Assembly (NCBI GenBank): GCA_050298595.1 | Contig: JBNKUM010000113.1 | Span: forward strand, 1 to 27,974 | Length of the DNA stretch: 27,974 bases | Origin: Gammaproteobacteria bacterium | Lineage (GTDB): Bacteria; Pseudomonadota; Gammaproteobacteria; GCA-001735895 | Reading direction: 5' to 3' | Notes under the pieces: model-generated | Told to the model about the DNA's origin: nothing | Seen by the model: only the letters and a program-made list of their open reading frames with translations | The model's database searches: none | Part shown: piece by piece, positions 1,920 through 15,171 of the stretch | Position numbering within the stretch: the stretch's first letter is position 1 | Layout: each line of letters opens with the position of its first letter | Program-made: the position numbers and the translations under genes

Positions 1920-2625
1920 ACTAAAAATCTCATAACCTGAGCGAATAATCTCAACTCAAATTTGTTGTTCTGCATTGTTGAAAAAAAAGCGACAGCAAAC
2001 TACAGGAAAAATTTGTGTCGGGATTTCGCATAGCCCGTCAAGGTTTTTGACAGATTGGCCCCCAAATGTGCCGAAGTGAGCTATGTTTCACCTTCATCCT
2101 TGATTACGTGAGCTTACTGGTGAACTAAAACATAATAACACAGGTGGATATGCCAATGGGCTATACTGAGAATAGTAGCCATAGTCCCTGTCGTCAATAC
2201 GTTGTTTGTAAGTAATCTGTGATCCACTGCTCACTGCAAAATCTACTCTCGATTTTATCAGAATTTGGTGGTTTGCGAGCTGTCTCTGAGTTCCCATACA
2301 GATAGTAGGGGTGATGAAAAAACACTATTGGTAGTGGAGTGTTATTCATCAAAGTGAATACAAATATCTAATTTATTTCCCCTGAGAATTTAAATATCTA
2401 GAATAGTTATTAGTTTTTTTCTAAACGAAAACAGTGTCGAGTTTCGACTGCAGTTTTTACAAATGTAGATCAATAATCTGTTACTGAATAAAGCTGAGAT
2501 GGAAAGAGCGGATAGTGAACAGGGCAAAAGAATTTTAAGTGTCGGTTGACCAGAGGTGGCAATTACGCGATGCTTCACCTATAAAAACTACAATATACTT
2601 CCTTTTAAACTACCAGGAGTTTGTC

Positions 2626-3153
2626 ATGTTCTCGAAAATTATTCTCGCTACTGATGGTTCCGATCACGCGAATAATGCATTAAAAATTGCCATTGATATG
2701 GCGCTTAAATATGAATCTGAACTTACAATCGTCCATGTTTTGACTCATGATCATCCCTCAGAGGAAATGGAGCGAATGATCGAGGTTGAACATCTGGATA
2801 AGGGCTTTTCACCTACACATACTCATGATGATGTTAATCGCATTGCAGACACTCTTGCCAGACGTAGCCTGTTGCGTAGCGGCGACCAGGAAGCTCGAGT
2901 GATCACCGTGATTGGGGAGCAGATTCTTAAAGCTGCTAATCATATGGCTCATGATGCTGGATTAAAGAATGTGCGTACGGAAATTCATGCGGGTGACTAT
3001 GCCAATGCGATACTTGATGTGGCTGATAAGAAGCAGGCAGATATTATTATCATGGGCAATCGAGGATTGAGTCCTTTAAGGGGGTTTGTCACAGGTAGTG
3101 TTTCACATAAGGTTGCTCAAAGGGCTAAATGCTCGGTATTAACGGTTAAATAG
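2626..3153 (+). CDS. Universal stress protein (UspA family, ATP-binding type)
   Basis: MFSKIILATDGS start after an AGGAG RBS (2615-2619); C-terminal DIIIMGNRGLSPLRGFVTGSVSHKV matches G-2x-G-9x-G(S/T). Confidence 0.92.
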   Translation: MFSKIILATDGSDHANNALKIAIDMALKYESELTIVHVLTHDHPSEEMERMIEVEHLDKGFSPTHTHDDVNRIADTLARRSLLRSGDQEARVITVIGEQILKAANHMAHDAGLKNVRTEIHAGDYANAILDVADKKQADIIIMGNRGLSPLRGFVTGSVSHKVAQRAKCSVLTVK

Positions 3154-4547: not shown

Positions 4548-6068
4548 ATGTTAAATTTACACAAAATCAAAACTACAGGACTTGCTCTGTTAGCGGCTTC
4601 GATAAGCGTACTGAGTGCCTGTGCTACAAGTGATCCAGGCCCCTACAGTTCACAGCCCAGTCCAGTCGTAGCAACAGCAACTGGAGAAAACTATTCTACC
4701 CTGCGCGAAAATCAGCTACTCAGGGTAAACAATGAGCCCGTTAGTACATTCAGTATTGATGTAGATACAGCCGCCTATGCCAATGTACGCAGGTTTATCA
4801 ACAATGGCTACCTGCCACCGCAAGACGCCGTGCGTATTGAAGAGATGATCAATTATTTCGACTACGACTATCCGGCAGCAGAGTCAGCGGATGAACCGTT
4901 TCGTATTATTTCTGAGATCGCCCCTACACCCTGGAATAGTGGTAGTTATCTGTTACATATCGGCATCAAGGGCTACCAGCCGCCACAGACTGAACAGCCT
5001 GCGCGCAATCTGGTATTTCTGCTGGACGTTTCTGGTTCTATGGATGCGCCAAACAAACTGGAGTTACTCAAAAAGTCACTACGCCTGCTGGTCAACCAGC
5101 TCAGCATGCGTGACCGAGTAGCGATTGTGGTGTATGCAGGAACCTCCGGAATTGTATTACCTTCTACACCTGGTAACCAGCGTCGCGAAATTATTCTGGC
5201 TCTGGAAAATCTGAGTGCTGGTGGTTCTACCAACGGTGGTGCTGGTATTGAGCTGGCTTATTCAATCGCTCAGCAAAACTATATCAAGGGTGGGATTAAC
5301 CGAGTGATCCTCGCGACTGATGGTGATTTCAATGTTGGTTCTTCAAATACAGATGAGTTAACACAGCTGATCAAACAGAAAAAACGTTCCGGAGTTGCAC
5401 TGACTGTGCTTGGCCTGGGTATGGGTGACTATAATGATCAGATGCTGGAAGAGATATCCAATGCAGGAGATGGGAATGCTGCGTATATAGATACGTTACA
5501 GGAAGCACAAAAGGTTCTGGTGCAGGACCTTGGCAGCACATTACAGACGATTGCACGTGATACCAGGATTCAGCTTGAATTTAATCCTGAAAAGGTGAGT
5601 AGTTATCGCTTAATCGGTTATGAAAACCGCATGCTCCACACAGAAGATTTCAAAAATGATCGCGTCGATGCTGGTGATGTTGGTGCTGGCCATACGGTCA
5701 CTGCACTGTATGAAATCACATTAAAAGATAGGCTACGTTACCAGGCAGCGCAAACTGTACAGAATATATTTAATAACGAACTCGCCTACCTGAAGCTGCG
5801 CTATAAAAAACCGAATGAGAGTAACAGTCGTGAAATTGTGCATGCCCTGTCTGCGCAGGATGTACAAATAAATCTGTCAGCAACTTCGGATAACTTCCGA
5901 TTTTCAGCAGCTGTTGCAGCGTTTGGCCAGCTACTAAGAAGCGGCGACCAGGTGGGGGACTTTTCTTTGACTGAGGTTGAGACTCTGGCCCAGCAAAGTC
6001 GTGGCGTCGACAGATTTGGTTATCGCAGTGAATTTGTAAAGCTGGTTCGCCTGGCAGAATCGCTATAG
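4548..6068 (+). CDS. YfbK-like von Willebrand factor A domain lipoprotein (DUF3520-type C-terminus)
   Basis: AGGAG RBS; lipobox VLSA|C; STFSIDVDTAAY and RIEEMINYF motifs; MIDAS DVSGSM; LATDGDFNVG; YRLIGYENR. Confidence 0.92.
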   Translation: MLNLHKIKTTGLALLAASISVLSACATSDPGPYSSQPSPVVATATGENYSTLRENQLLRVNNEPVSTFSIDVDTAAYANVRRFINNGYLPPQDAVRIEEMINYFDYDYPAAESADEPFRIISEIAPTPWNSGSYLLHIGIKGYQPPQTEQPARNLVFLLDVSGSMDAPNKLELLKKSLRLLVNQLSMRDRVAIVVYAGTSGIVLPSTPGNQRREIILALENLSAGGSTNGGAGIELAYSIAQQNYIKGGINRVILATDGDFNVGSSNTDELTQLIKQKKRSGVALTVLGLGMGDYNDQMLEEISNAGDGNAAYIDTLQEAQKVLVQDLGSTLQTIARDTRIQLEFNPEKVSSYRLIGYENRMLHTEDFKNDRVDAGDVGAGHTVTALYEITLKDRLRYQAAQTVQNIFNNELAYLKLRYKKPNESNSREIVHALSAQDVQINLSATSDNFRFSAAVAAFGQLLRSGDQVGDFSLTEVETLAQQSRGVDRFGYRSEFVKLVRLAESL

Positions 6069-6423
6069 CCATACATATAAAAGGGTTTAAGACACCACTG
6101 ATGTGTGTATATTGTCTCTGGCACACAGGCTGATGCGCACAGCGTCGGGTGGGGGTGAAAATCCTGGAAATCAACTGAAAGCCACCGGTTTCAGAGTTAT
6201 TTCAGTCTGTACAGTGAATTTTGTGCAAAAAAATTGTGCAAAAAAAGAGCTGGAACTCCGGAATTTTTTTATTTGTTTGTGTTTTAATTAGTGGCTGCCA
6301 TGTCTATAGATGGCTTTTTGTGAAGATGAATCGGTAAAAGAGTCCGTTTTCCAGACTCGAGATCTTATATTTCCGGAGCCGGGGAATTCAACACTTGGTA
6401 CAATTTTTCGTTGTGTTCATAAA

Positions 6424-7470
6424 ATGATTACTCTTGGATTACTTGGGTTTGATGCGGCATTGGTCAAATCCTTATCGATAGCCCTTAGCAGTCGGGCAGC
6501 AAAAGTCTGTCAGTATGTCGAGCCGGAAGCGGCTTCGGTGGTGTTGGTTGATATTGATAATCTGCAGGATCAAAATGCCTGGAAACAGTTAAAAGATGCA
6601 TGCTCATCAATATTTATAGCCGCTTCTCAAAACCTCACACTACCGGCGGGATATGAACAGGACTTTGTTTCAGTTATTGCTAAGCCAATACGTTTTACAG
6701 CGATGCTTGCGTCGGTAAAAGCTGCTGTAGCCAGTGGGCAGGAGTCAGCCCAATCTCTAAATAACACCTCGATGGTCGCGGATTTGATCGATAGCGGGCG
6801 GATGCGCCGTAATTCTGAGGTGCTGCGTAGCCAGGCAGAGATTGATCCAGATAACTTCCTGTTAGGGTTTGTGCTGAATTCAGTGCAACTCAATTCAGCT
6901 GATCATTACCGTTATATCTGTCTTGATGAAGGTCATCCCCGTAATGATGGGCAATGGTTAGTGATCGATAAACGATTGGGCAGAGTTTATCTCAGTATCA
7001 ATGCGAAGGTGATTAGCCATACTGCAATTATGGATTTTTCACAGCATGGGGTCATTGAGCAGTGGATTAATTCCAGTCAGCTGGCTGAGCTTAAATCCAG
7101 AGCTGTGCAGAATATTCCCGTTGAAGAGTTTATCTGGGTATTGACCAGGGACACGGTTCGTAATGCACGCCTTATGAACTTTGATACTGAAAAGCGTTAT
7201 CGGCTTAAATGCTGGCCGAACTTAACCTGTTACGCCACTGGTAATCAGGATGTTGCAATAGCCAGTTTCTGGGCTGAAAGTAATGCCAGTGCGGTTGAAC
7301 TGGCTACTAGCCTGGGTATGACGCTTAATGACGTCCTGCCTTTTGCTACTTGTTGTTTTACCTGTGGTTTGCTCGAGCCAGTTGATAAACCTGTGGCGAT
7401 GACCACCCGTAAACCGAAAACAGGCTTTAACAAGGTGTTATCTATGATTTTGAAAAAACTGGAAAGTTGA
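6424..7470 (+). CDS. Receiver-like domain protein with C-terminal PATAN/DUF4388-like and winged-helix region (partner of MglA-like GTPase)
   Basis: REC-like VVLVDID and IAKP; C-terminal RLKCWPNLT and ASAVELATSLGMTLNDV..GLLE; terminal amphipathic helix. ATG 6424 is preferred over 6310 on domain start only. Confidence 0.65.
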   Translation: MITLGLLGFDAALVKSLSIALSSRAAKVCQYVEPEAASVVLVDIDNLQDQNAWKQLKDACSSIFIAASQNLTLPAGYEQDFVSVIAKPIRFTAMLASVKAAVASGQESAQSLNNTSMVADLIDSGRMRRNSEVLRSQAEIDPDNFLLGFVLNSVQLNSADHYRYICLDEGHPRNDGQWLVIDKRLGRVYLSINAKVISHTAIMDFSQHGVIEQWINSSQLAELKSRAVQNIPVEEFIWVLTRDTVRNARLMNFDTEKRYRLKCWPNLTCYATGNQDVAIASFWAESNASAVELATSLGMTLNDVLPFATCCFTCGLLEPVDKPVAMTTRKPKTGFNKVLSMILKKLES

Positions 7471-7473
7471 GCT

Positions 7474-8013
7474 ATGCGCAAGGGTAATTTAAAAATAGTT
7501 TTCGCCGGTTCTATTGGTGCAGGTAAAACGACAGCTATTCAGTCGGTTAGTGATGTTGAAGTGGTACATACTGAGGAAATGGCCACCGATGATGTGAAGC
7601 AGATGAAGGAAACAACCACCGTTGCCATGGACTACGGCCAGATGATTCTCGAAGACAAAACCCTGTTGCATTTGTACGGAGCGCCAGGGCAGGGGCGGTT
7701 TGATTTTATGTGGGAGATACTGTCGCTTGGTGCACTGGGGGTGATCGTTCTGATTGATGCGGCAAGTTCTGATCCGTTTGCCCAGATTGATGCCTATATG
7801 ACAGGTTTTGAGCAACAGCTACGAGAGCGAACTATGGTCATTGGTCTTTCGCGTACTGACCTTAATGAACAGTTCCAACTGGATGAATATCGCAGTTATA
7901 TCTGTCGATATGATCAAAGTATCCCTCTGCTCACTGTCGATACCCGTCAGCAGCAGCAAGTTAGAGTTCTGGTGAGAGTTCTGTTACACCGAATAGATCC
8001 CTGGTTGGTGTAG
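7474..8013 (+). CDS. MglA-like (conservon CvnD-type) small Ras-like GTPase
   Basis: G1 GSIGAGKTT, switch I TTVAMDYG, G3 YGAPGQGRFDFMW, G4-like SRTD, G5-like VDTR. Confidence 0.9.
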   Translation: MRKGNLKIVFAGSIGAGKTTAIQSVSDVEVVHTEEMATDDVKQMKETTTVAMDYGQMILEDKTLLHLYGAPGQGRFDFMWEILSLGALGVIVLIDAASSDPFAQIDAYMTGFEQQLRERTMVIGLSRTDLNEQFQLDEYRSYICRYDQSIPLLTVDTRQQQQVRVLVRVLLHRIDPWLV

Positions 8014-9327
8014 ATGATGTATTCTTCAGAGATTAATTTACTATCGCTAAGAGATTTTGGTGTTAATTTCGGAAAGCGTAAAATTCTCACCGGGATTAAT
8101 CTGGATATAGGCGATAAGGGGATTACCCATTTGCTAGGGCCCTGCGGAGCCGGAAAATCTACTTTGCTCAGGTCCCTGGCCGGCCTTAACGATTTGTCTT
8201 CTATGTACCAGCCGCAGGGTACAGTGTTTTACAAGGGTGAGGCTCTGGGTACTCTTGATCGTCCCTTGATGATGGAGCAAAAACCTTCCGGGCTGTTGAA
8301 TAATATATTTAACAGTATTTTAACTCTTCTGCCAGAAAGGGGCTCGCTGAGCGCCCGTCAACAAATTGATCTGGTCGATCGTCTGTTGCGACAATATGGT
8401 TTGTCTCACTTAGTCAATAGCTTGAGTACGCCATTAACCCAGTTATCGCTAGCTGATCGACGCAGTGTTCTTATACTGGGGCTAGTGGTCACCGCACCGG
8501 AAATGATTATGCTGGATGAGCCGACTGCTAATATGCCAGAGGATGATGCCAGGGTGGTGCTTGATTTGATCAGACTTGTGGCCGAATTGCGCTCTGTCTT
8601 GCTGGTTCAGCACAATCAGGAATATGTCAAATATCTGGGCGGCAACGCGATATTGATTGCCGGGGGGACGATTCAGGAAGAGGCTACAGCGCAAAAATTA
8701 CTGACAGAACCCGTTTCCGCAGCCGGACAGGAATTCGCGGGAAGTGGTACCTGTGCCGCACCTAGTCCGGATACTGACCCTGAAATGCTGGACGAGGCCT
8801 TTGTCGCAAGGTACAAACCGGTCGTTCGTGAACTGGAGAAACAACCCAGAATTATACCATTTGGTCCGCAAGGTTTTCGTTGGGTAGAGCGTGAAAAGCT
8901 CGCGGCCACACCCAGGCCGGGTATAGGGGGAGATATGGAATATGATTTAAAGGCGCTTGCCAGAGTCAAAATTGATTATCTGGTGTCACTCGAGGAAATT
9001 ATGCCGCTGCAAGAGGCTGACACTGCTGAATATAATATATCACTGTACCATTTACCAACGGTTGATATGGGCGTACCTGAGATGGATGAAACGCTGACAT
9101 TAAATCGTGCGATGCATCAATGGCTGAAGCAGGGCAAGCGAGTTGCTGTGCATTGTAAGGCCGGTCTCGGTCGTACCGGTACCATGTTGGCGGCTTATTA
9201 TATTTTAAAGGGCATGAGTGCTGCGGATGCCATGCAGAAACTTCGTCTTGTGAATCCGCGCATGATTCAATCTGGTGAGCAGGAAAAGTTTCTGTTCGAT
9301 TATTCCGATTATATTGCTGCAATTTAA
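8014..9327 (+). CDS. ABC-type ATPase domain fused to a dual-specificity/CDC14-like Cys phosphatase
   Basis: Walker A GPCGAGKS, Q-loop, degenerate signature LSLAD, Walker B IMLDEP, H-loop VQHN; C-terminal PTVDMGVP loop and HCKAGLGRTG (9151-9180). Confidence 0.88.
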   Translation: MMYSSEINLLSLRDFGVNFGKRKILTGINLDIGDKGITHLLGPCGAGKSTLLRSLAGLNDLSSMYQPQGTVFYKGEALGTLDRPLMMEQKPSGLLNNIFNSILTLLPERGSLSARQQIDLVDRLLRQYGLSHLVNSLSTPLTQLSLADRRSVLILGLVVTAPEMIMLDEPTANMPEDDARVVLDLIRLVAELRSVLLVQHNQEYVKYLGGNAILIAGGTIQEEATAQKLLTEPVSAAGQEFAGSGTCAAPSPDTDPEMLDEAFVARYKPVVRELEKQPRIIPFGPQGFRWVEREKLAATPRPGIGGDMEYDLKALARVKIDYLVSLEEIMPLQEADTAEYNISLYHLPTVDMGVPEMDETLTLNRAMHQWLKQGKRVAVHCKAGLGRTGTMLAAYYILKGMSAADAMQKLRLVNPRMIQSGEQEKFLFDYSDYIAAI

Positions 9328-9521
9328 AAAAGGAAGTCAAGTGATTTATTTATCTATAAATACAGTGACCGTTCATGCAAAAAAACAAAATATAGATGAA
9401 AAAAATTTTTTTTTGTATTCTATAATTACTGATTCGTTTCTGTGTAAAGTTTTCTTCTACTTTGAAGTTAATTTTACTCAGCCGGATATCACCCAATATT
9501 TTAGTAACCAGGAGTCCTAGA

Positions 9522-9923
9522 ATGTCTTTAGATGTAGAAGTACAAAATTCAATTGCCACTATCCCTGAATGTATTGCTGCCGGTTATGTCGATGTCGGCA
9601 CCGGTATGCTGTTAAGTATAAAATCTGTCGACTCTCATCCCGGAGAAGTGATGGATCTGTTAGCGGCCGCAACCGGTGATCTCTTTCAGGGGCCTAATGT
9701 CGTAGCTATTGAAGATATCTTTAAAAAGGCTCGTGGTTCAAATGATCAGGGTCATTACTTTCAGGAAATGGTTGTGCTCAGTGATAATCTTGTGCATGTT
9801 TTTCTACGGGGAAAGACTTACACTGAACATGTTGTAGTATTTGTTTGCCGTAAATCAGTCAATCTGGGAATGGCATTAACCAAGGCTAGAATGGCTGCGC
9901 CTAAACTGGAAGCTGCACTTTAA
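9522..9923 (+). CDS. Divergent roadblock/LC7-like protein, paralog 1
   Basis: ATG after an AGGAG RBS (9510-9514); 133 aa; helix/strand pattern fits a roadblock fold; clear paralog of 10215-10649. Confidence 0.7.
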   Translation: MSLDVEVQNSIATIPECIAAGYVDVGTGMLLSIKSVDSHPGEVMDLLAAATGDLFQGPNVVAIEDIFKKARGSNDQGHYFQEMVVLSDNLVHVFLRGKTYTEHVVVFVCRKSVNLGMALTKARMAAPKLEAAL

Positions 9924-10214
9924 TCTCCTGGGCTGTCATTTCGCGTGGCTTGCCATGTGAGAATAAGGATGTTTCTATGGGAGTCTTAAGATTCCCGTGA
10001 AACTCCTAAGACACCTCTTATCAATATGATGTATCTGTGGCACATAGTTTAATGCGCAATCAGGTCACAGCTTGGCGCACACGCGTCTGCCTGGGAAGAA
10101 GTTGTAATGATTAGCACAGAGACATTACATACAGATCAGAGAAGTCCTAAGCAAATATCCCGTCCGCTTGCGAGGGGGGATGTATAGCTTTAAATGGGTT
10201 GAAAAAACGTTCCT

Positions 10215-10649
10215 ATGTCATTAAAAAGTCAGTTGTATAAGTCGATAAGAGGAATGCCTCTATGTATTGCAGGCGGGTATATCGATCTTGACAATAAAAT
10301 ACTGCTAGATATGTTGACGAGAGGGCCAGAGTCCAAGGAGATGCTGCCGCGACTGGTTGGTATCACAGAGGATTTATTTCAGGGTTCGAATGTAAAGATG
10401 ATTGAACAGATTTTTAATAAATCTCGAGGCGTACAAGATCGTGGCCGACATTTATTTCAGGAAATGGTGGTTATGAATGAGGATTTGATTCACGTTTTTA
10501 TTCGCGGAAAAACATTTAATAATCATATTGTCACCTTTATTTTTGAAGGTAAGATGAATATGGGGTTGTCACTGTCAAAATCACGTAAAGAAATACCCTT
10601 GCTGGAAGATGAAGTGGCATTATTGCGTATGCAAAATCGAAAACTTTAG
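10215..10649 (+). CDS. Divergent roadblock/LC7-like protein, paralog 2
   Basis: Shares CIAxGYxD, DLFQGxNV, IExIFxKxRG, FQEMVV and HVFxRGKT with 9522-9923. Confidence 0.7.
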   Translation: MSLKSQLYKSIRGMPLCIAGGYIDLDNKILLDMLTRGPESKEMLPRLVGITEDLFQGSNVKMIEQIFNKSRGVQDRGRHLFQEMVVMNEDLIHVFIRGKTFNNHIVTFIFEGKMNMGLSLSKSRKEIPLLEDEVALLRMQNRKL

Positions 10650-10670
10650 AATTATTGAGATTTAGCTAAA

Positions 10671-11039
10671 GTGGCGTATAAACTAAATGTAATCAATAAA
10701 ATACTGGGTGATTTTGTCATTAGTTCTTCCAGTATTCAGGCTGCCGCAGTGATGACTCGTGACGGTCACCTTATCGCTTCTAATCTAGATGCTGGTGTGG
10801 ATGGTGATCGCTTAAGTGCTATTTCAGCTTCGCTATTATCGCTAGCTGATCGGGCCACTCAGGATGTACAACAGGGTATTTTGAAACAGGTGCTTATCGC
10901 TAATAGTGATGGCTTTATCCTCATGCTCAAAGTAGGCGAAAACGCCGTACTTTCAGTAGTTTCAGAAGCTAGTTCCAGCCTGGGCATGTTATTGCACGAG
11001 GCAAATAAATCCGCCGCCATTCTGGCTCATTTAATTTAA
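10671..11039 (+). CDS. Roadblock/LC7 (MglB-like) protein
   Basis: 122 aa with AAAVMTRDGHLIAS, DRLSAISASLLSLA, GILKQVLI...GFILM and SLGMLL, the classic roadblock signature. GTG start. Confidence 0.88.
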   Translation: MAYKLNVINKILGDFVISSSSIQAAAVMTRDGHLIASNLDAGVDGDRLSAISASLLSLADRATQDVQQGILKQVLIANSDGFILMLKVGENAVLSVVSEASSSLGMLLHEANKSAAILAHLI

Positions 11040-11063
11040 GCACAGATTGCTTTGCTACTGCAT

Positions 11064-12620
11064 ATGACAACAATCTATTTTGAAAATGATTCTTTCGAAT
11101 GCCGTGATAATGAATCGGTTCTGGATGCATTACTCAGACAGGGCAGGGAGATTCCTTTTTCATGTCGCAATGGAGTCTGCCACGCCTGCCTGATGCGTGT
11201 GGTCGAAGGCGCTCCTGGAGAGTCTGCACAGAAAGGATTATCTCAAGGTTTATTGCAGAAAAATTATTTTCTGCCCTGCCGTTGCCGTCCGGATAAAGAT
11301 TTGACTATTGCGTTACCGCGTTCTGCAGATCTAAGTTGCCTGGCAATTGTACAGGGAAAGCAACAACTGAATGATCAGGTCTGGCGTTTTGAGATAGAGC
11401 CCTCGGTTGAATTGTTTTATCACGCTGGCCAGTTTATTAGTATCAAAAATCCGCAAGGCGTAGTGCGTAGTTATTCAATCGCCAGTGTGCCGCAGCAGGA
11501 TTATTTTCTTGAACTGCATATTAATCGTCATGATCAAGGGCAAATGAGTCGATGGTTGATTGATGAGGTTGAAGTGGGAGATGAAATTCAAATAATCCGC
11601 CCAGAGGGCAATAATTTTTACCAGGCTGGGCAACAAACACCTTTGTTGCTGGCAGGTACTGGAACGGGTTTGGCTCCATTAATCGGTATTGCGAGAGACG
11701 CCCTGTATTCCGGGCATCAGGCAGCGGTTCATCTTTATCATGGAGCTGTTGATAAGCATGGGCTTTATTTACAGGAAAGTTTACGCAGTCTGGAACAGAC
11801 GTTTGAGACTTTCCATTTCCATCCCTGCGTTATTAATGAGCAAAGTATTCAACAGGCGATTTCAGCACAGCATGTTTCACTATCTGGCTGGCAAATTTAT
11901 ATTGCAGGAAATCCACTGCTGGTAACCTCAGTAGCTGAGCAGGCGCAGCAACTGGGCGCTGACGAATCAGCAATTTTTAAAGATCCTTTTACCCTCAGTG
12001 AAATCACTGGAACAGATGACTACACTGATGTTAGCGAACAAAATAATCGTCAGCCTCAGGAGATGGCTTATCCGCCCCCGGATACTGAACTCTGGCAAGC
12101 TCTGGGTGAGGGTGAAATACTTAAAAGGATTCTCGATGATTTTTACGATGCAGTATTTGAGGACCCGGTAATGTCTCCGTACTTTCATAACTCGACCAAG
12201 ACTCGAGCGAAAGAAAAGGTTTACTCATTTTATCGACGTTTATTTTCCGGGGAGCGAGTTTATTTCGGTGACAGGCCGCGCAATGCACACCACTGGATGG
12301 TGATTAGCGATGAGGTGTTTAACTATCGCGAAATCTTGCTCAAAAGCTTTATGCAGAAACATGGATTAAACGATGCAATGATCACTCGTTGGCAGGTTCT
12401 TGAAGAATTGTATCGTCCTGATATTGTAAAAACCAGGGCGAGGGGACGCATGGTCGGCGATATCGAAACTCCGGCAGAAGGTTACGGCAAGATCACATTA
12501 AGTGTTGCCGGTATGTGCGATGCATGCCATGAAGAAATTGATACGGGAACAGAAGTGGTTTATCACTTGCGCACAGGTGAGCTATTCTGTGCGAATTGTT
12601 CGGCCAGCAGACACTGTTGA
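11064..12620 (+). CDS. Multidomain oxidoreductase: [2Fe-2S] ferredoxin, FAD/NAD(P)H FNR module, group I truncated globin and CxxC...CxxC ribbon
   Basis: CRNGVCHAC..C; RSYSIAS, GQMS and GTGLAP; globin LWQALG..DDFYDAV..PYF..RNAHHW; terminal CDAC (12516) and CANC (12588). Confidence 0.82.
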   Translation: MTTIYFENDSFECRDNESVLDALLRQGREIPFSCRNGVCHACLMRVVEGAPGESAQKGLSQGLLQKNYFLPCRCRPDKDLTIALPRSADLSCLAIVQGKQQLNDQVWRFEIEPSVELFYHAGQFISIKNPQGVVRSYSIASVPQQDYFLELHINRHDQGQMSRWLIDEVEVGDEIQIIRPEGNNFYQAGQQTPLLLAGTGTGLAPLIGIARDALYSGHQAAVHLYHGAVDKHGLYLQESLRSLEQTFETFHFHPCVINEQSIQQAISAQHVSLSGWQIYIAGNPLLVTSVAEQAQQLGADESAIFKDPFTLSEITGTDDYTDVSEQNNRQPQEMAYPPPDTELWQALGEGEILKRILDDFYDAVFEDPVMSPYFHNSTKTRAKEKVYSFYRRLFSGERVYFGDRPRNAHHWMVISDEVFNYREILLKSFMQKHGLNDAMITRWQVLEELYRPDIVKTRARGRMVGDIETPAEGYGKITLSVAGMCDACHEEIDTGTEVVYHLRTGELFCANCSASRHC

Positions 12621-12651
12621 ATAGATATTTTCGCAGGGTTCAGCTTGCAGC

Positions 12652-12685
12652 AATACTCCGTCAGCTTGCTGCGGGGTTGTTTATT
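12652..12685 (-). repeat. Palindromic REP/IS200-IS605-end-like repeat, copy 1
   Basis: Reverse complement AATAAACAACCCCGCAGCAAGCTGACGGAGTATT matches 20372-20405 at 31/34 positions. It forms a hairpin between convergent genes. Confidence 0.75.
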
Positions 12686-12687
12686 AG

Positions 12688-13368
12688 TCAGGACTCATCT
12701 TTATAAGCTAACCAGATCGTATGTCTGGCTCCTTTTTTACCATGTGCATAAATCTTCTTCTCTTCAACCCTTAAACGGCAGGATTTCAGTAATTTATTAA
12801 ATTTGGGGTCAGTTACAGCAGACCAATAGCTGACAATGCCTTTAGGTTTGAGTGCTGTGCGTACACAATGTATGCCTGCGGCTGTATACAACCAGTCGTT
12901 ACTTGTTTTGGTTAGCCCATCAGGACCATTGTCTACATCCAGAGCGATCACATCGTAACAGGCCTTCTGGACACGTAATATTTTCCCTACATCAGTAATA
13001 TGGACTCGTGTACGTTGATCATTGAGTGGATATCCACTGATAGCACCCAGCGGTCCTCGATTCCATTCAACCACTTCAGGAATTAATTCCGCTACATCGA
13101 CCACAGCCTGTGGCCCGACATGAGCCAGTACAGATGCCAGAGTAAAGCCCATGCCCAGGCCACCAATTAAAATCTGGGGCGCTTCAGGGTTTTTCAGTGC
13201 CTGACAGGGTAAATAACCTAATGCATCCTCAGAACCGTGTTGGCGGGTATTCATCAACTCAATGCCACCCGATATCTTGATATGAAAATCATCCTTGTCC
13301 TGGAATAACATTAATGTTTTCTCAGAACCCGGTATTGGAGCCGTGCCTAATTGGTTCCAGTGACGCAT
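12688..13368 (-). CDS. Spermidine synthase-like class I SAM-dependent methyltransferase
   Basis: ILIGGLGMGFTL, VAELIPEVVEW and DVIALDVDNGP. ATG 13368 is preferred over TTG 13389. Confidence 0.8.
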   Translation of the reverse strand: MRHWNQLGTAPIPGSEKTLMLFQDKDDFHIKISGGIELMNTRQHGSEDALGYLPCQALKNPEAPQILIGGLGMGFTLASVLAHVGPQAVVDVAELIPEVVEWNRGPLGAISGYPLNDQRTRVHITDVGKILRVQKACYDVIALDVDNGPDGLTKTSNDWLYTAAGIHCVRTALKPKGIVSYWSAVTDPKFNKLLKSCRLRVEEKKIYAHGKKGARHTIWLAYKDES

Positions 13369-13714
13369 GCTTATTAAATCCGTAAACAATGGAAACAGGG
13401 GTTATAAGGGTAAATGGCGATGGCGTCTACGTAATATTTTTATTAAAGGATGCTAATTATTAACCACGAATAAGGGCAGGATGCCTGTAATTAGAGCAAC
13501 GCAGGAACAGTTGCCGAGAACACAAAGTGCACGATGATAGATGTTTTATTCGAGCTTTATCTTTTGACAGTGGACTATTTATTTGAGTTAGACCCCACAA
13601 GTGATGCGGTTAGCAAAGCTCACTACATCCTGCGAAATTAATATTCAATTGCGATGACTGGATTATCAGGGCGCCTGTGCTGGCAGCTTAGACGCTGATA
13701 TTTTGCCATTAGAG

Positions 13715-13800
13715 GCACTTATAAATTCTTGCATCCCTTTTACGATATTTCATTAAGCAATTATCATAAGATGATTTTATAAATTCGACAGCGTAGACTC
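13715..13800 (+). promoter_or_regulatory. Putative xylA promoter / XylR-binding region
   Basis: AT-rich stretch upstream of xylA with direct repeat TTATAAATTC (13719-13728 and 13777-13786). Assignment to XylR rests on context only. Confidence 0.3.
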
Positions 13801-13836
13801 AGTCGTTAATCTAAGTTACTTAACATGAGGCTAAAT

Positions 13837-15171
13837 ATGGCTACTGATTTCTTTACTCTGGATAAACCTGTTACTTACGAAGGCCCCGACACGGAAAATC
13901 CATTTGCTTTCCGTTGGTATGATGCCAAACGTGAAGTTCTGGGTAAACCGTTGGCCGAGCATCTGCGCTTCGCGGCCTGTTACTGGCATACCTTTTGTTG
14001 GAATGGTGCGGATGTTTTTGGGGAAGGTCCATTCGGACGTCCCTGGATCGATTCCTCACTGGAGCCGATGCAGGCAGCCAAACAGAAACTGGACGTGGCT
14101 TTCGAATTCTTTAGCAAGCTCGGGGTTCCTTATTACTGTTTTCATGATCGGGACATCGCGCCAGAAGGTTCTAGTGTCGCGGAATCTCGTTCTAACCTTG
14201 AGCAGATGACCGATCTGGCGGGTGAAAAAATGCAACAGTCTGGCGTCAAGTTGCTATGGGGAACTGCCAATCTGTTCAGCAACAAGCGCTACGCTGCAGG
14301 GGCATCGACCAATCCAGACCCCGAGGTGTTTAGCTTCGCTGCCCAGCAGATTAAGAATGCCATAGATGCAACCCATAAACTCGGCGGACAGAATTATGTG
14401 TTATGGGGTGGACGCGAGGGTTATGAAACCCTTTTAAATACCGATCTGAAACGGGAAGCAGACCAGTTTGGGCGCTTTCTGTCGATGGTTGTGGAGTATA
14501 AACACAAGATTGGTTTTACTGGAACATTGCTCATAGAGCCGAAACCACAGGAACCTACCAAACATCAGTATGATTATGATACGGCTACCGTTTATGGCTT
14601 TTTGCAACGCTATGGACTGGAAAAGGAATATAAGGTTAATGTCGAAGTTAACCATGCAACGTTGGCAGGACACAGTTTTCAACATGAAGTCGCGCTCGCG
14701 TCATCGTTAGATTTTCTCGGCAGTGTCGATGCCAATCGCGGTGATTACCAGAATGGCTGGGATACCGACCAGTTCCCGAACAGTGTCGATGAGCTGGCCT
14801 TAGCCTGCTATGAAATTATTCGCGGTGGTGGCTTTGCAACCGGGGGTTTTAATTTCGACGCCAAGTTACGCCGCCAGAGTCTCGATCCCATGGACCTGTT
14901 CCACGGCCACATCGGTGGTATGGATGTTATCGCGCGCGCTTACCTGATTGCTGCCGAGCTGTATCAGAAGAATAGTCTGCAGAGCTTTGTCGATGAGCGT
15001 TACAGTGGCTGGCAAAGTGGCATTGGGGCGGAAATCCTCAGCGACCAGCATGATCTGAGCAGCCTGGCCAGCTATGTTGAGCAACAAAACCTTGACCCGC
15101 AACCCGTCTCTGGGCGTCAGGAAATGCTGGAGAATAGGGTCAATCGCGCCATTGAATCGTTAAAAAACTAA
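13837..15171 (+). CDS. xylA: Xylose isomerase (class II)
   Basis: [39 protein letters not shown] and NFDAK motifs. A GAGG RBS favours ATG 13837. Confidence 0.97.

Follow-up and report, generated by a model that had tools for sequence, protein, structure and literature searches.

We analyzed a 27,974-nucleotide stretch of gammaproteobacterial DNA (contig JBNKUM010000113.1, assembly GCA_050298595.1; the whole stretch is hereafter called the window) and focused on the gene at 11064..12620. This gene encodes a single polypeptide in which a plant-type ferredoxin, a ferredoxin-NADP reductase (FNR) module, a truncated haemoglobin and a C-terminal knuckle of four cysteines follow one another, and it closes a conserved operon of the Group 3 MglA type (Table 1). 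The open reading frame spans 11052..12620 on the forward strand and opens with TTG. We took the ATG at 11064 as the start because it coincides with the N-termini of homologues in alignment A1, which comprises 35 homologues of the full-length fusion; the product (P0001) is then 518 amino acids long. A first-pass annotation of the window had proposed this succession of ferredoxin, FNR, truncated globin and CxxC tail in one chain. All four modules were confirmed by Pfam, profile and fold comparisons, and every motif that it named is present, nearly all of them invariant or nearly so among the 35 homologues.

Table 1. Features of the fusion gene and of the operon that precedes it
Feature	Position	Strand	Residues or length	Basis and remarks
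Fusion gene (ferredoxin-FNR-truncated haemoglobin-Cys knuckle)	11064..12620	+	518 amino acids	alternative TTG start at 11052
Plant-type [2Fe-2S] ferredoxin domain	11064..11333	+	1-90	Pfam Fer2 (residues 10-76, E 2.3e-15), PDB ferredoxins, ligands C34, C39, C42, C72
FAD-binding beta-barrel of the FNR module	11349..11633	+	96-190	Pfam FAD_binding_6 (residues 103-186, E 1.2e-10), R135-S-Y-S138, Foldseek
NAD(P)H-binding domain	11640..11993	+	193-310	Pfam NAD_binding_1 (residues 198-291, E 2.4e-8), G200-T-G-L-A-P205, AGNP at 281-284
Acidic linker	11994..12077	+	311-338	length-variable, poorly conserved, gapped columns in A1
Predicted group I (N-type) 2/2 haemoglobin domain	12078..12434	+	339-457	Pfam Bac_globin (residues 343-435, E 2.1e-7, 31.6 bits, cut-off 21), PDB profile, Foldseek
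C-terminal four-Cys knuckle	12471..12617	+	470-518	invariant columns, secondary structure of the model
First operon gene	6310..7470	+	386 amino acids	no Pfam family; fits the receiver-like/winged helix-turn-helix partner of Group 3 MglA systems
MglA/CvnD-type small GTPase	7474..8013	+	179 amino acids	Pfam ATP_bind_1 E 4.1e-13, Ras E 1.2e-6
N-terminal ABC-type ATPase joined to a Cys-dependent dual-specificity phosphatase	8014..9327	+		ABC_tran E 5.8e-15, PTP-SAK E 1.8e-16, DSPc E 5.2e-11
Small conserved protein unk153, first paralogue	9522..9923	+	~133 amino acids	tblastn; no Pfam family
unk153, second paralogue	10215..10649	+	144 amino acids	same cluster as 9522-9923
Roadblock/LC7 (MglB-type) protein	10671..11039	+		Robl_LC7 E 3.6e-11

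The first 310 residues are predicted to form a complete reductase of the BenC/GcoB/T4moF class, a one-electron donor that would pass electrons from NAD(P)H through flavin adenine dinucleotide (FAD) to the [2Fe-2S] centre. In alignment A1 the four ligand cysteines, R135/S136/S138 and the glycine-rich stretch from G200 to P205 are invariant or nearly so, as is C74; an AGNP motif with invariant G282 replaces the usual CGP. The ferredoxin domain matched PDB ferredoxins at E 1e-11 to 1e-13. The nearest NCBIfam model for residues 4-309 was PRK05713 (171 bits against a cut-off of 338), and BenC (136 bits against 430), MmoC and AntC also scored below their cut-offs. By sequence, the nearest PDB chains were GcoB (5ogx, E 2.5e-25), T4moF (4wqm) and BenC (1krh), and Foldseek with a model of the full-length protein likewise placed GcoB, CarAd, BenC and T4moF on top (5ogx at E 8.7e-25, then 7c3a, 1krh and 4wqm). 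That model reached a mean predicted local distance difference test (pLDDT) score of 83.5 and a predicted template modelling (pTM) score of 0.50, from which we consider the individual domains to be good and their mutual arrangement unreliable; within the linker, residues 312-329 have pLDDT <50. The window protein thus shares the Fer2-FAD-NAD order, the motifs and the fold of the class IB/III oxygenase reductases (BenC, GcoB, T4moF, CarAd; PRK05713). Whereas those reductases serve separate oxygenases, here the acceptor globin is fused, and the protein falls below every equivalog cut-off.

The globin domain is assigned from sequence comparison to the group I (TrHbN, or T1) 2-on-2 fold, to which it is nearer than to groups II and III. 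As a single query, residues 335-465 retrieved from the PDB Chlamydomonas THB1 (E 1.1e-6), HbN and further group I chains. To this we added a profile built from alignment A2 (37 family members, residues 335-518). It aligned without gaps to Tetrahymena 3aq5 (E 2.7e-12; profile 8-121 against chain 6-119) and to Mycobacterium tuberculosis HbN (1idr, E 3.6e-9), and over the PDB it matched group I chains at E 2.7e-12 to 2.2e-7, against 3.4e-4 for the best group II chain (YjbI) and 0.047 for group III. A model of residues 335-518 (pLDDT 85.1, pTM 0.67) was superposed on 1dlw, 1idr and 3aq5 over 114-115 residues with target TM-scores of 0.81-0.88 and root-mean-square deviations of 1.8-2.0 Å; group II and III chains ranked below group I in this fold comparison as well. 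The span that the first-pass annotation gave for the globin, 12085-12425, corresponds to residues 341-454.

Residues F360-Y361 (B9-B10), F374 (CD1) and H409 of the NAHH motif (F8) are invariant in both A1 and A2. By the HbN residue numbering, the ungapped alignment would place Y361 at B10, F374 at CD1, A382 at E7, V386 at E11, H409 at F8 and R422 at G8. At E7 the window protein has Ala where most members have Leu; its Val at E11 is one of the two residues (Gln or Val) that the family shows there; and G8 is an invariant Arg. Group I globins usually carry a small apolar residue (Val, Ile or Leu) at G8 and Gln at E11, so that the window protein departs from the usual group I residues at both positions. 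The AB and EF hinges each hold a single Gly (E-G350 and T-G396-E) in place of the Gly-Gly motifs that serve as a group I criterion in the available part of PMC4720485. A group IV (Q) truncated haemoglobin, as the same part of that source delimits it, was excluded: the family has neither His E7 nor Trp/Phe G8. With a complete predicted reductase and every haem-binding determinant that could be checked retained, the first-pass proposal of a self-sufficient haem enzyme or sensor is supported at the level of sequence.

The globin is followed by two CxxC pairs with a 20-residue spacer between them (C485-x2-C488, Y500-H-x-R-x-G505, C509-x2-C512). The ferredoxin-FNR form of the family (A1) keeps the four Cys, D486, Y500-H501, R503 and G505 without exception, and of these the four Cys, D486, H501 and R503 are still invariant in the broader A2. 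In the model, short strands are succeeded by a helix starting at the second CxxC. Similarity of the A2 profile to known fingers was weak (FYVE, E 0.005; RING-H2, E 0.39); a single-sequence search of the PDB with the knuckle found nothing significant (best E 0.43), and the ESM Atlas returned just globin clusters of its own family, with scores up to 0.78. We call it a putative treble-clef-like metal knuckle. It occurs solely attached to this globin.

Proteins related to the fusion are numerous. A word-indexed search gave 1939 proteins at E <=1e-3 among 8000 scored candidates, and the best 120 are 507-553 amino acids long, 43-100% identical to the query (which is included) and cover 97-100% of it; 118 of them carry a precomputed PF01152 match. 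Full-length homologues run to hundreds, in beta- and gammaproteobacteria. An exhaustive search with the globin-knuckle profile recovered 1545 representatives at E <=1e-3, of which 327 reached E <=1e-10 and 106 reached E <=1e-30, in several architectures: besides the window form (Fer2-FNR-globin-knuckle, ~520 amino acids) there are a form without FNR (Fer2-globin-knuckle, ~280-310; for example CLH62_20355, 286 amino acids, of the cultured Marinobacter guineae), a Fer2-unknown-globin-knuckle form (~375-400), a CDGSH-globin-knuckle form (270-289; P0202 and P0433), the globin-knuckle alone (~195-215, named 'group 1 truncated hemoglobin' by NCBI) and a phosphatase-globin-knuckle form (337-362). From this range of architectures, the conserved core is the globin together with the knuckle. 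What is interchangeable is the electron donor (none, CDGSH, Fer2 or Fer2-FNR), which, where present, nearly always provides a [2Fe-2S] centre. The related proteins also included multi-unit truncated haemoglobins (P0241 with 1882 amino acids, P0242, P0300 and others) with up to 12 tandem globin-profile matches.

The first-pass annotation had described the fusion as a reversed, flavohaemoglobin-like design. As an analogy this stands: like Hmp and other flavohaemoglobins, the protein joins a globin and an FNR-type FAD/NAD(P)H module for haem reduction in one chain. It differs from them in the reversed order, in a C-terminal globin of the 2/2 group I type rather than 3/3, in the extra [2Fe-2S] centre between flavin and haem, in the extra knuckle and in its GTPase-operon setting. 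As a statement of ancestry it fails, since the parts resemble a separate pair of trHbN and ferredoxin-FNR genes, not Hmp. The flavohaemoglobin structure 1gvh aligned to the FNR part alone (E 3.2e-13, residues 107-254), and the Hmp model of NCBIfam scored 70 bits, likewise over the FNR part only (residues 98-264); with its cut-off of 432 bits not approached, the fusion is, judged by its sequence, not a member of the flavohaemoglobin family. Such a pair of separate trHbN and ferredoxin-FNR genes does occur at L091, in a genome from the same family as the window, with a globin 25% identical to that of the window. Another such pair, glbN-lpg2536 of Legionella, is predicted to be NsrR-controlled and NO-oxidising in the accessible portions of Rodionov 2005 (PMC1274295) and PMC3820574. 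Its two proteins are likewise a truncated haemoglobin of group I and a reductase with 2Fe-2S, FAD and NAD(P)H sites; in the window protein, however, reductase and globin are fused in that order, a Cys knuckle and Arg G8 are present, and the setting is a GTPase operon rather than an NsrR regulon.

The fusion begins 24 nt after the Roadblock gene (end at 11039, ATG at 11064), the spacing given in the first-pass annotation. To assess the link, neighbouring genes were sought by tblastn in the best 80 of 532 confirmed loci of a genome collection scan (48 with the full fusion, 32 with ferredoxin-FNR only). The core genes were defined as the GTPase, the ABC-ATPase/phosphatase, unk153 and Roadblock. 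Fusion loci with an upstream flank of 4 kb or more number 36; 32 of them hold at least three of the four core genes, and in 29 of the 36 loci these genes lie upstream, on the same strand and within 7 kb. The operon is downstream on the opposite strand in L005 and L006 and rearranged in L019; the four misses are L024, L026, L044 and L050. Fusion loci with shorter flanks had at least one core gene upstream in 7 out of 12 cases. Globin-less ferredoxin-FNR loci had core genes in 1 out of 32. In that one (L029), a GTPase, a Roadblock protein, the small protein and an ABC-phosphatase-like gene lie within 10 kb upstream, which may be a coincidence or a variant system. Clustering of the open reading frames of 49 loci gave a canonical order of 386-amino-acid protein, GTPase, ABC-phosphatase, one or two copies of unk153, Roadblock and fusion. 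The first-pass annotation had suggested a link to the GTPase system and had made conserved adjacency its test beforehand; this adjacency holds in the 32 of 36 genome loci.

A second scan, of metagenomes and seeded with a ferredoxin-globin-knuckle protein, gave 80 loci: 43 hold the ferredoxin-FNR form, 18 a form with ferredoxin only and 4 the globin only, while 15 are truncated at their 5' end. Among those with at least 3.5 kb upstream, at least three core genes were present in 21 of 24 ferredoxin-FNR loci and in 6 of 10 ferredoxin-only loci, which puts the operon in 27 of the 34 metagenome loci with enough flank. The remaining ferredoxin-only loci have two core genes (L107, L113, L118) or none (L150), and three of the four globin-only forms have at least one. 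As metagenome-assembled genomes and metagenome contigs overlap in origin, these counts are not independent of those above. Four hundred evenly sampled genomes of the class to which the window belongs (all but one of them scored) were examined as well. The globin-knuckle was found in five of them (G000, G096, G140, G276 and G294) and a close form of the small protein in six (G000, G096, G140, G276, G316 and G234); G140, G276 and G294 are apparently the same records as L053, L073 and L026 and add nothing new. In G096, the operon itself contains a reductase-less globin-knuckle gene of 215 amino acids, flanked by the small-protein gene and Roadblock. Among more distant core systems, L098, L100 and L101 have the small protein in GTPase-Roadblock operons with neither the phosphatase protein nor a globin. 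The operon-linked part is the globin-knuckle module.

This module is also found joined to a phosphatase. In seven protein clusters (P0328 and P0389-P0394; 337-362 amino acids), a dual-specificity phosphatase domain is attached directly to the globin-knuckle. P0389-P0394 are 51-57% identical to P0328, and six of the seven clusters begin with Met at the phosphatase domain. The fused phosphatase matches residues 287-434 of the window's ABC-phosphatase with 36% identity (E 4e-26, 148 residues), and HC-x5-R, FY, Phe CD1, HH, Arg G8 and the four Cys are invariant in the fusions. Fusion of proteins that are separate elsewhere is classic evidence of joint action, and these natural fusions give independent support to the Cys phosphatase as the target; the first-pass annotation had expected this phosphatase to be sensitive to oxidation. 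Neither the two genomes that hold L050 and L024 nor 351 genomes from the phylum to which G401 belongs yielded a phosphatase-globin fusion; the same searches retrieved phosphatase and fusion genes there only as separate genes. A complex prediction for the GTPase, Roadblock and the small protein with the globin-knuckle, a job that did not contain the phosphatase protein, scored 0.19 against a mark of 0.32 and speaks neither for nor against an interaction.

The remaining operon proteins agree with a Group 3 MglA system. The GTPase has the motifs GPVGAGKTT (G1), GTPGQERF (G3), TRTD without Lys (G4) and D156-x-R158 (G5); in the consensus of 20 operon GTPases (alignment A5), which reads GVTRTD at G4, D156-x-R158 is invariant. 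A G4 without Lys and a D-x-R G5 are the marks of Group 3 in the available text of PMC4316618, and the coupled MglB/Roadblock protein of that group corresponds to the Roadblock gene at 10671-11039. According to that text, these systems are widespread in beta- and gammaproteobacteria with no input signal known, and their partner protein has a receiver-like N-terminus and a winged helix-turn-helix C-terminus. The first operon gene, whose family was found in 30 of the 49 clustered loci, would fit this partner: the window protein has no Pfam match, and one homologue matches Response_reg weakly (E 0.027). The operon shares with Group 3 a conserved unknown protein, which in the window may be receiver-like, a GTPase with deviant G4 and D-x-R G5, one or two MglB/Roadblock proteins and the same taxa, as far as the accessible part of PMC4316618 describes them. 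It differs from that description, which has no ABC-ATPase/phosphatase and no haem protein; ferredoxin, phosphatase and globin are absent from the main text of the paper.

The small protein unk153 is the best-conserved protein of the operon (60-98% identity across loci from beta- and gammaproteobacteria). Its hhalign alignment with Roadblock reached a probability of 67.6% over the C-terminal 36 columns only, a weak likeness, and it is possibly a divergent MglB/Roadblock protein, maybe the second MglB clade of Group 3 systems. In the ABC-ATPase/phosphatase protein, the phosphatase part comprises approximately residues 286-434 with the motif HCKAGLGRTG. The ABC part is soluble and PstB-like, with no transporter partner nearby. 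The fusion of ATPase and phosphatase is itself kept in 33 of the 49 clustered loci, and we found no described function for it. Pfam names of the phosphatase (PTP-SAK, 'polymorphic toxin') could suggest a defence system. We rejected this reading: PADLOC gave a generic ATPase match for the ABC part (mad3, E 1.3e-14) and no match for the other six operon proteins. A scan of 5900-13900 returned 15 promoter-like sites (15.8 expected) and nine terminator-like sites (7.3 expected); with no excess in either, it is uninformative.

Other genes accompany the operon in some loci. A Cys-rich protein of ~134 amino acids (PF03692, CxxCxxCC, putative Zn/Fe chelating, E down to 3.7e-7) directly precedes the fusion in 15 loci, for instance at L007:9497-9898, L012:9320-9694 and L013:354-806; it is lacking in the window and may be a further redox partner. 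A PAS-GGDEF-EAL gene is inserted between Roadblock and the Cys-rich gene in three loci (L012:7221-9293, L053:7442-9511 and L072:5312-7417), which hints at a cyclic di-GMP output in some species. In the window, a PAS-domain methyl-accepting chemotaxis protein (Aer-like) is encoded at 348-1919 on the reverse strand, 4.4 kb upstream of the operon, and a related chemotaxis protein lies near the fusion gene in L053 and L083. Genes for a universal stress protein (2539-3153, forward strand) and a VWA/YfbK protein (4548-6068, forward strand) also lie upstream; because both are shared with the closest relative, L003, alone, we place them outside the conserved operon.

Six fusion loci lack the operon (L010, L024, L026, L044, L050 and L055), and their surroundings point to nitric oxide (NO) chemistry. 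A divergent gene for an Rrf2-family regulator adjoins the fusion in L044 (E 1.7e-38) and L055 (E 6.5e-34), and in L026 a NirK-like two-domain copper oxidase and a cytochrome c are encoded beside it. We searched all 49 loci (774 kb) for NsrR operators using the 19-nt consensus as given in the part of PMC1274295 available to us. Only six sites with at most two mismatches were found in the 774 kb, two of which lie upstream of operon-less fusions, at 53 nt (L044) and 125 nt (L010); L055 has a three-mismatch site at -89. The window has no site of this consensus with at most two mismatches, and its five three-mismatch sites are near background (92 per 774 kb). A 23-nt version of the motif had no match in the window with up to three mismatches. 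NsrR control of the window gene was rejected on these searches.

In a quick maximum-likelihood tree, the stand-alone copies do not form a clade of their own. The stand-alone copy of L055 is sister to the operon copy of L007 from the same metagenome-assembled genome, with a support of 82 in the Shimodaira-Hasegawa-like approximate likelihood ratio test. A clean split of operon and stand-alone copies was rejected, as four changes were required for five stand-alone rows, a number equalled by 69 of 500 shuffles. Given the NsrR-type context and the interleaved tree, we appear to be dealing with the same protein in two settings, as a member of an NsrR-type regulon and as an operon component.

The closest parallel to the operon layout comes from actinobacteria. 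There, the fifth and last gene of G-protein operons (conservons) encodes the P450 CvnE or the GAF protein CvnF, proposed as a sensory input in the available text of PMC13343842. Both kinds of operon combine a small GTPase and Roadblock with a terminal haem- or ligand-binding accessory that is thought to act on an ATPase-bearing component. The conservons belong to another phylum and have a histidine-kinase-type ATPase and a P450 where the window has an ABC-ATPase/phosphatase and a 2/2 globin. In L095 (G316:C1), where the operon has no globin, the gene preceding the GTPase (12618-13163, reverse strand) matches DUF742, the CvnC family of the conservons, with E 7.4e-5, and is possibly an evolutionary bridge between proteobacterial and actinobacterial G-protein systems. 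The globin-coupled sensors of the S family offer a second comparison: in them a haem globin controls a signalling output, as the layout of the phosphatase-globin fusions would have it, but their globin is N-terminal and 3/3, whereas here it is C-terminal and 2/2 group I.

The domain architecture was already visible to automatic annotation, and some members are named 'ferredoxin-NADP reductase/ferredoxin/truncated hemoglobin YjbI' by JGI. What is new is the link to the operon and the phosphatase fusion. Our literature searches found no published account of the fusion or its biochemistry, although the catalogue of multidomain truncated haemoglobins by Hade et al. 2017 may list the architecture, and no published link of the fusion to a GTPase/Roadblock/phosphatase operon. 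The part of a 2020 review that we could access (PMC7475203) lists bacterial chimeric T globins for groups O and P only. The 'novel haemoglobin' of Acinetobacter (PMC11836069) was considered and set aside as unrelated, being a 3/3 globin with a dead FAD domain.

We propose that the fusion is a self-resetting haem input, for NO and/or O2, to the Group 3 MglA GTPase/phosphatase system, a reading drawn from sequence and gene context to which we give a probability of roughly 55%. The globin-knuckle would serve as the haem-based input, responding to NO and/or O2 and in that sense to redox state. The state of the globin-knuckle would change when a ligand binds, or through NO dioxygenation with ferric haem as its result; the phosphatase-bearing protein would read this state and pass it on to the GTPase switch. 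The fused reductase would return the haem to the ferrous form, one electron at a time, making the sensor self-resetting and coupling it to the NAD(P)H pool. The underlying reactions are probably those of the stand-alone paralogues as well, whose NsrR-type control indicates that they handle NO. In favour of a signalling input stand the domains and their residues, the operon link and its restriction to the globin-knuckle, the phosphatase fusion, the interchangeable electron donors, the NO-related surroundings of the stand-alone copies and the conservon precedent. A more specific proposal, which we hold tentatively and at less than even odds, is that the globin-knuckle is the first bacterial truncated (T-family, group I) haemoglobin to act as a signalling device, controlling a Cys phosphatase in a small-GTPase pathway. 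Such control could be allosteric, on binding of NO or O2, or could work through reactive oxygen or nitrogen species made or removed at the catalytic Cys.

Several observations weigh against a sensory role. Operon-linked and operon-less copies are interleaved in the quick tree, and the operon copy thus shows no visible sensor-specific change and may simply be that NO-consuming enzyme. The stand-alone copies retain the knuckle as well, which argues that it is not merely a docking device for the GTPase system. Globin-less operons exist in G316 (GTPase, ABC-phosphatase and small protein) and G234 (ABC-phosphatase and small protein). The 80 loci of each scan are those nearest the query, and the linked fraction may drop in more distant members. 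Co-transcription in the window is deduced from the 24-nt gap alone.

The first alternative is that the protein is simply a co-expressed NO dioxygenase, whose oxy-ferrous haem converts NO to nitrate and is recycled by the reductase, with no part in signalling. Tyr B10 is retained and Gln E11 is common in the family, and both residues have roles in the NO-dioxygenating HbN. The operon copies have near-identical stand-alone sisters, paralogues lie beside Rrf2/NsrR-type regulators or operators (in one case beside the NirK-like gene), and separate gene pairs occur in L091 and in Legionella, the latter predicted in PMC1274295 and PMC3820574 to oxidise NO under NsrR control. However, a stress enzyme would not be expected as the fixed last gene of a signalling operon (32 of 36 loci), nor would a reductase-less copy inside the operon of G096 or a phosphatase fusion without reductase, and the window has no NsrR-type site with at most two mismatches. 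We consider this alternative unlikely, yet it is the main rival.

A second alternative keeps the phosphatase as the target but has the protein act as a controlled generator of oxidants: superoxide, peroxide or peroxynitrite made beside the phosphatase Cys would switch it off reversibly, under GTPase control, in a bacterial counterpart of the eukaryotic Rac/NADPH oxidase/tyrosine-phosphatase axis. An FNR-type dehydrogenase feeding haem, kept beside a small GTPase and a Cys-x5-Arg phosphatase, would suit such a device, as would the natural phosphatase-globin fusions and the invariant Arg at distal G8, since haem enzymes that deal with anionic oxygen species typically have a distal residue of this type. 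Yet the case is one of inference throughout. The phosphatase-globin fusions carry no reductase themselves, a Tyr at B10 usually holds bound O2 in place rather than letting it go, and the NO-linked regulation of the paralogues better fits NO consumption. We regard it as improbable.

Lower again we place an oxygenase or peroxidase that would turn over a small organic substrate and in this way make or destroy a signal molecule, as has been speculated for the conservon P450. The reductase belongs by its features to a class that serves oxygenases (GcoB, BenC, T4moF, CarAd), conservons in the accessible account end in a P450, and Arg G8 is unusual. Nevertheless, clustering of the 49 loci revealed no conserved substrate-related neighbours, the pocket is of the small 2/2 haemoglobin type, and the context of the paralogues is NO-related. 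Finally, a degenerate, haem-free globin scaffold, which would leave a ferredoxin reductase with a C-terminal adaptor, could be read from the modest single-sequence Pfam score of 31.6 bits, but is very hard to reconcile with an ungapped fold match and with His F8, Phe CD1, Tyr B10 and the basic pre-F segment staying invariant down to 43% identity in five architectures.

If the protein proves to be only an enzyme, it would represent a second, independently assembled answer to the flavohaemoglobin problem, with modular electron donors. If instead the self-resetting input that we favour is correct, Group 3 MglA systems gain a candidate input, a haem protein tied to NO/O2, and a candidate target, the ABC-ATPase/Cys-phosphatase. 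Haem-based sensing would extend to truncated globins, with a natural design for a self-resetting haem sensor. Control of the Cys phosphatase by the globin-knuckle, if true, would be a prokaryotic parallel to the eukaryotic circuit of small GTPase, NADPH oxidase and tyrosine phosphatase, of which the window protein would be a self-powered version. The hosts include sulfur- and iron-oxidising and methane- and methanol-using bacteria of oxic-anoxic interfaces, where gradients of NO and O2 decide behaviour.

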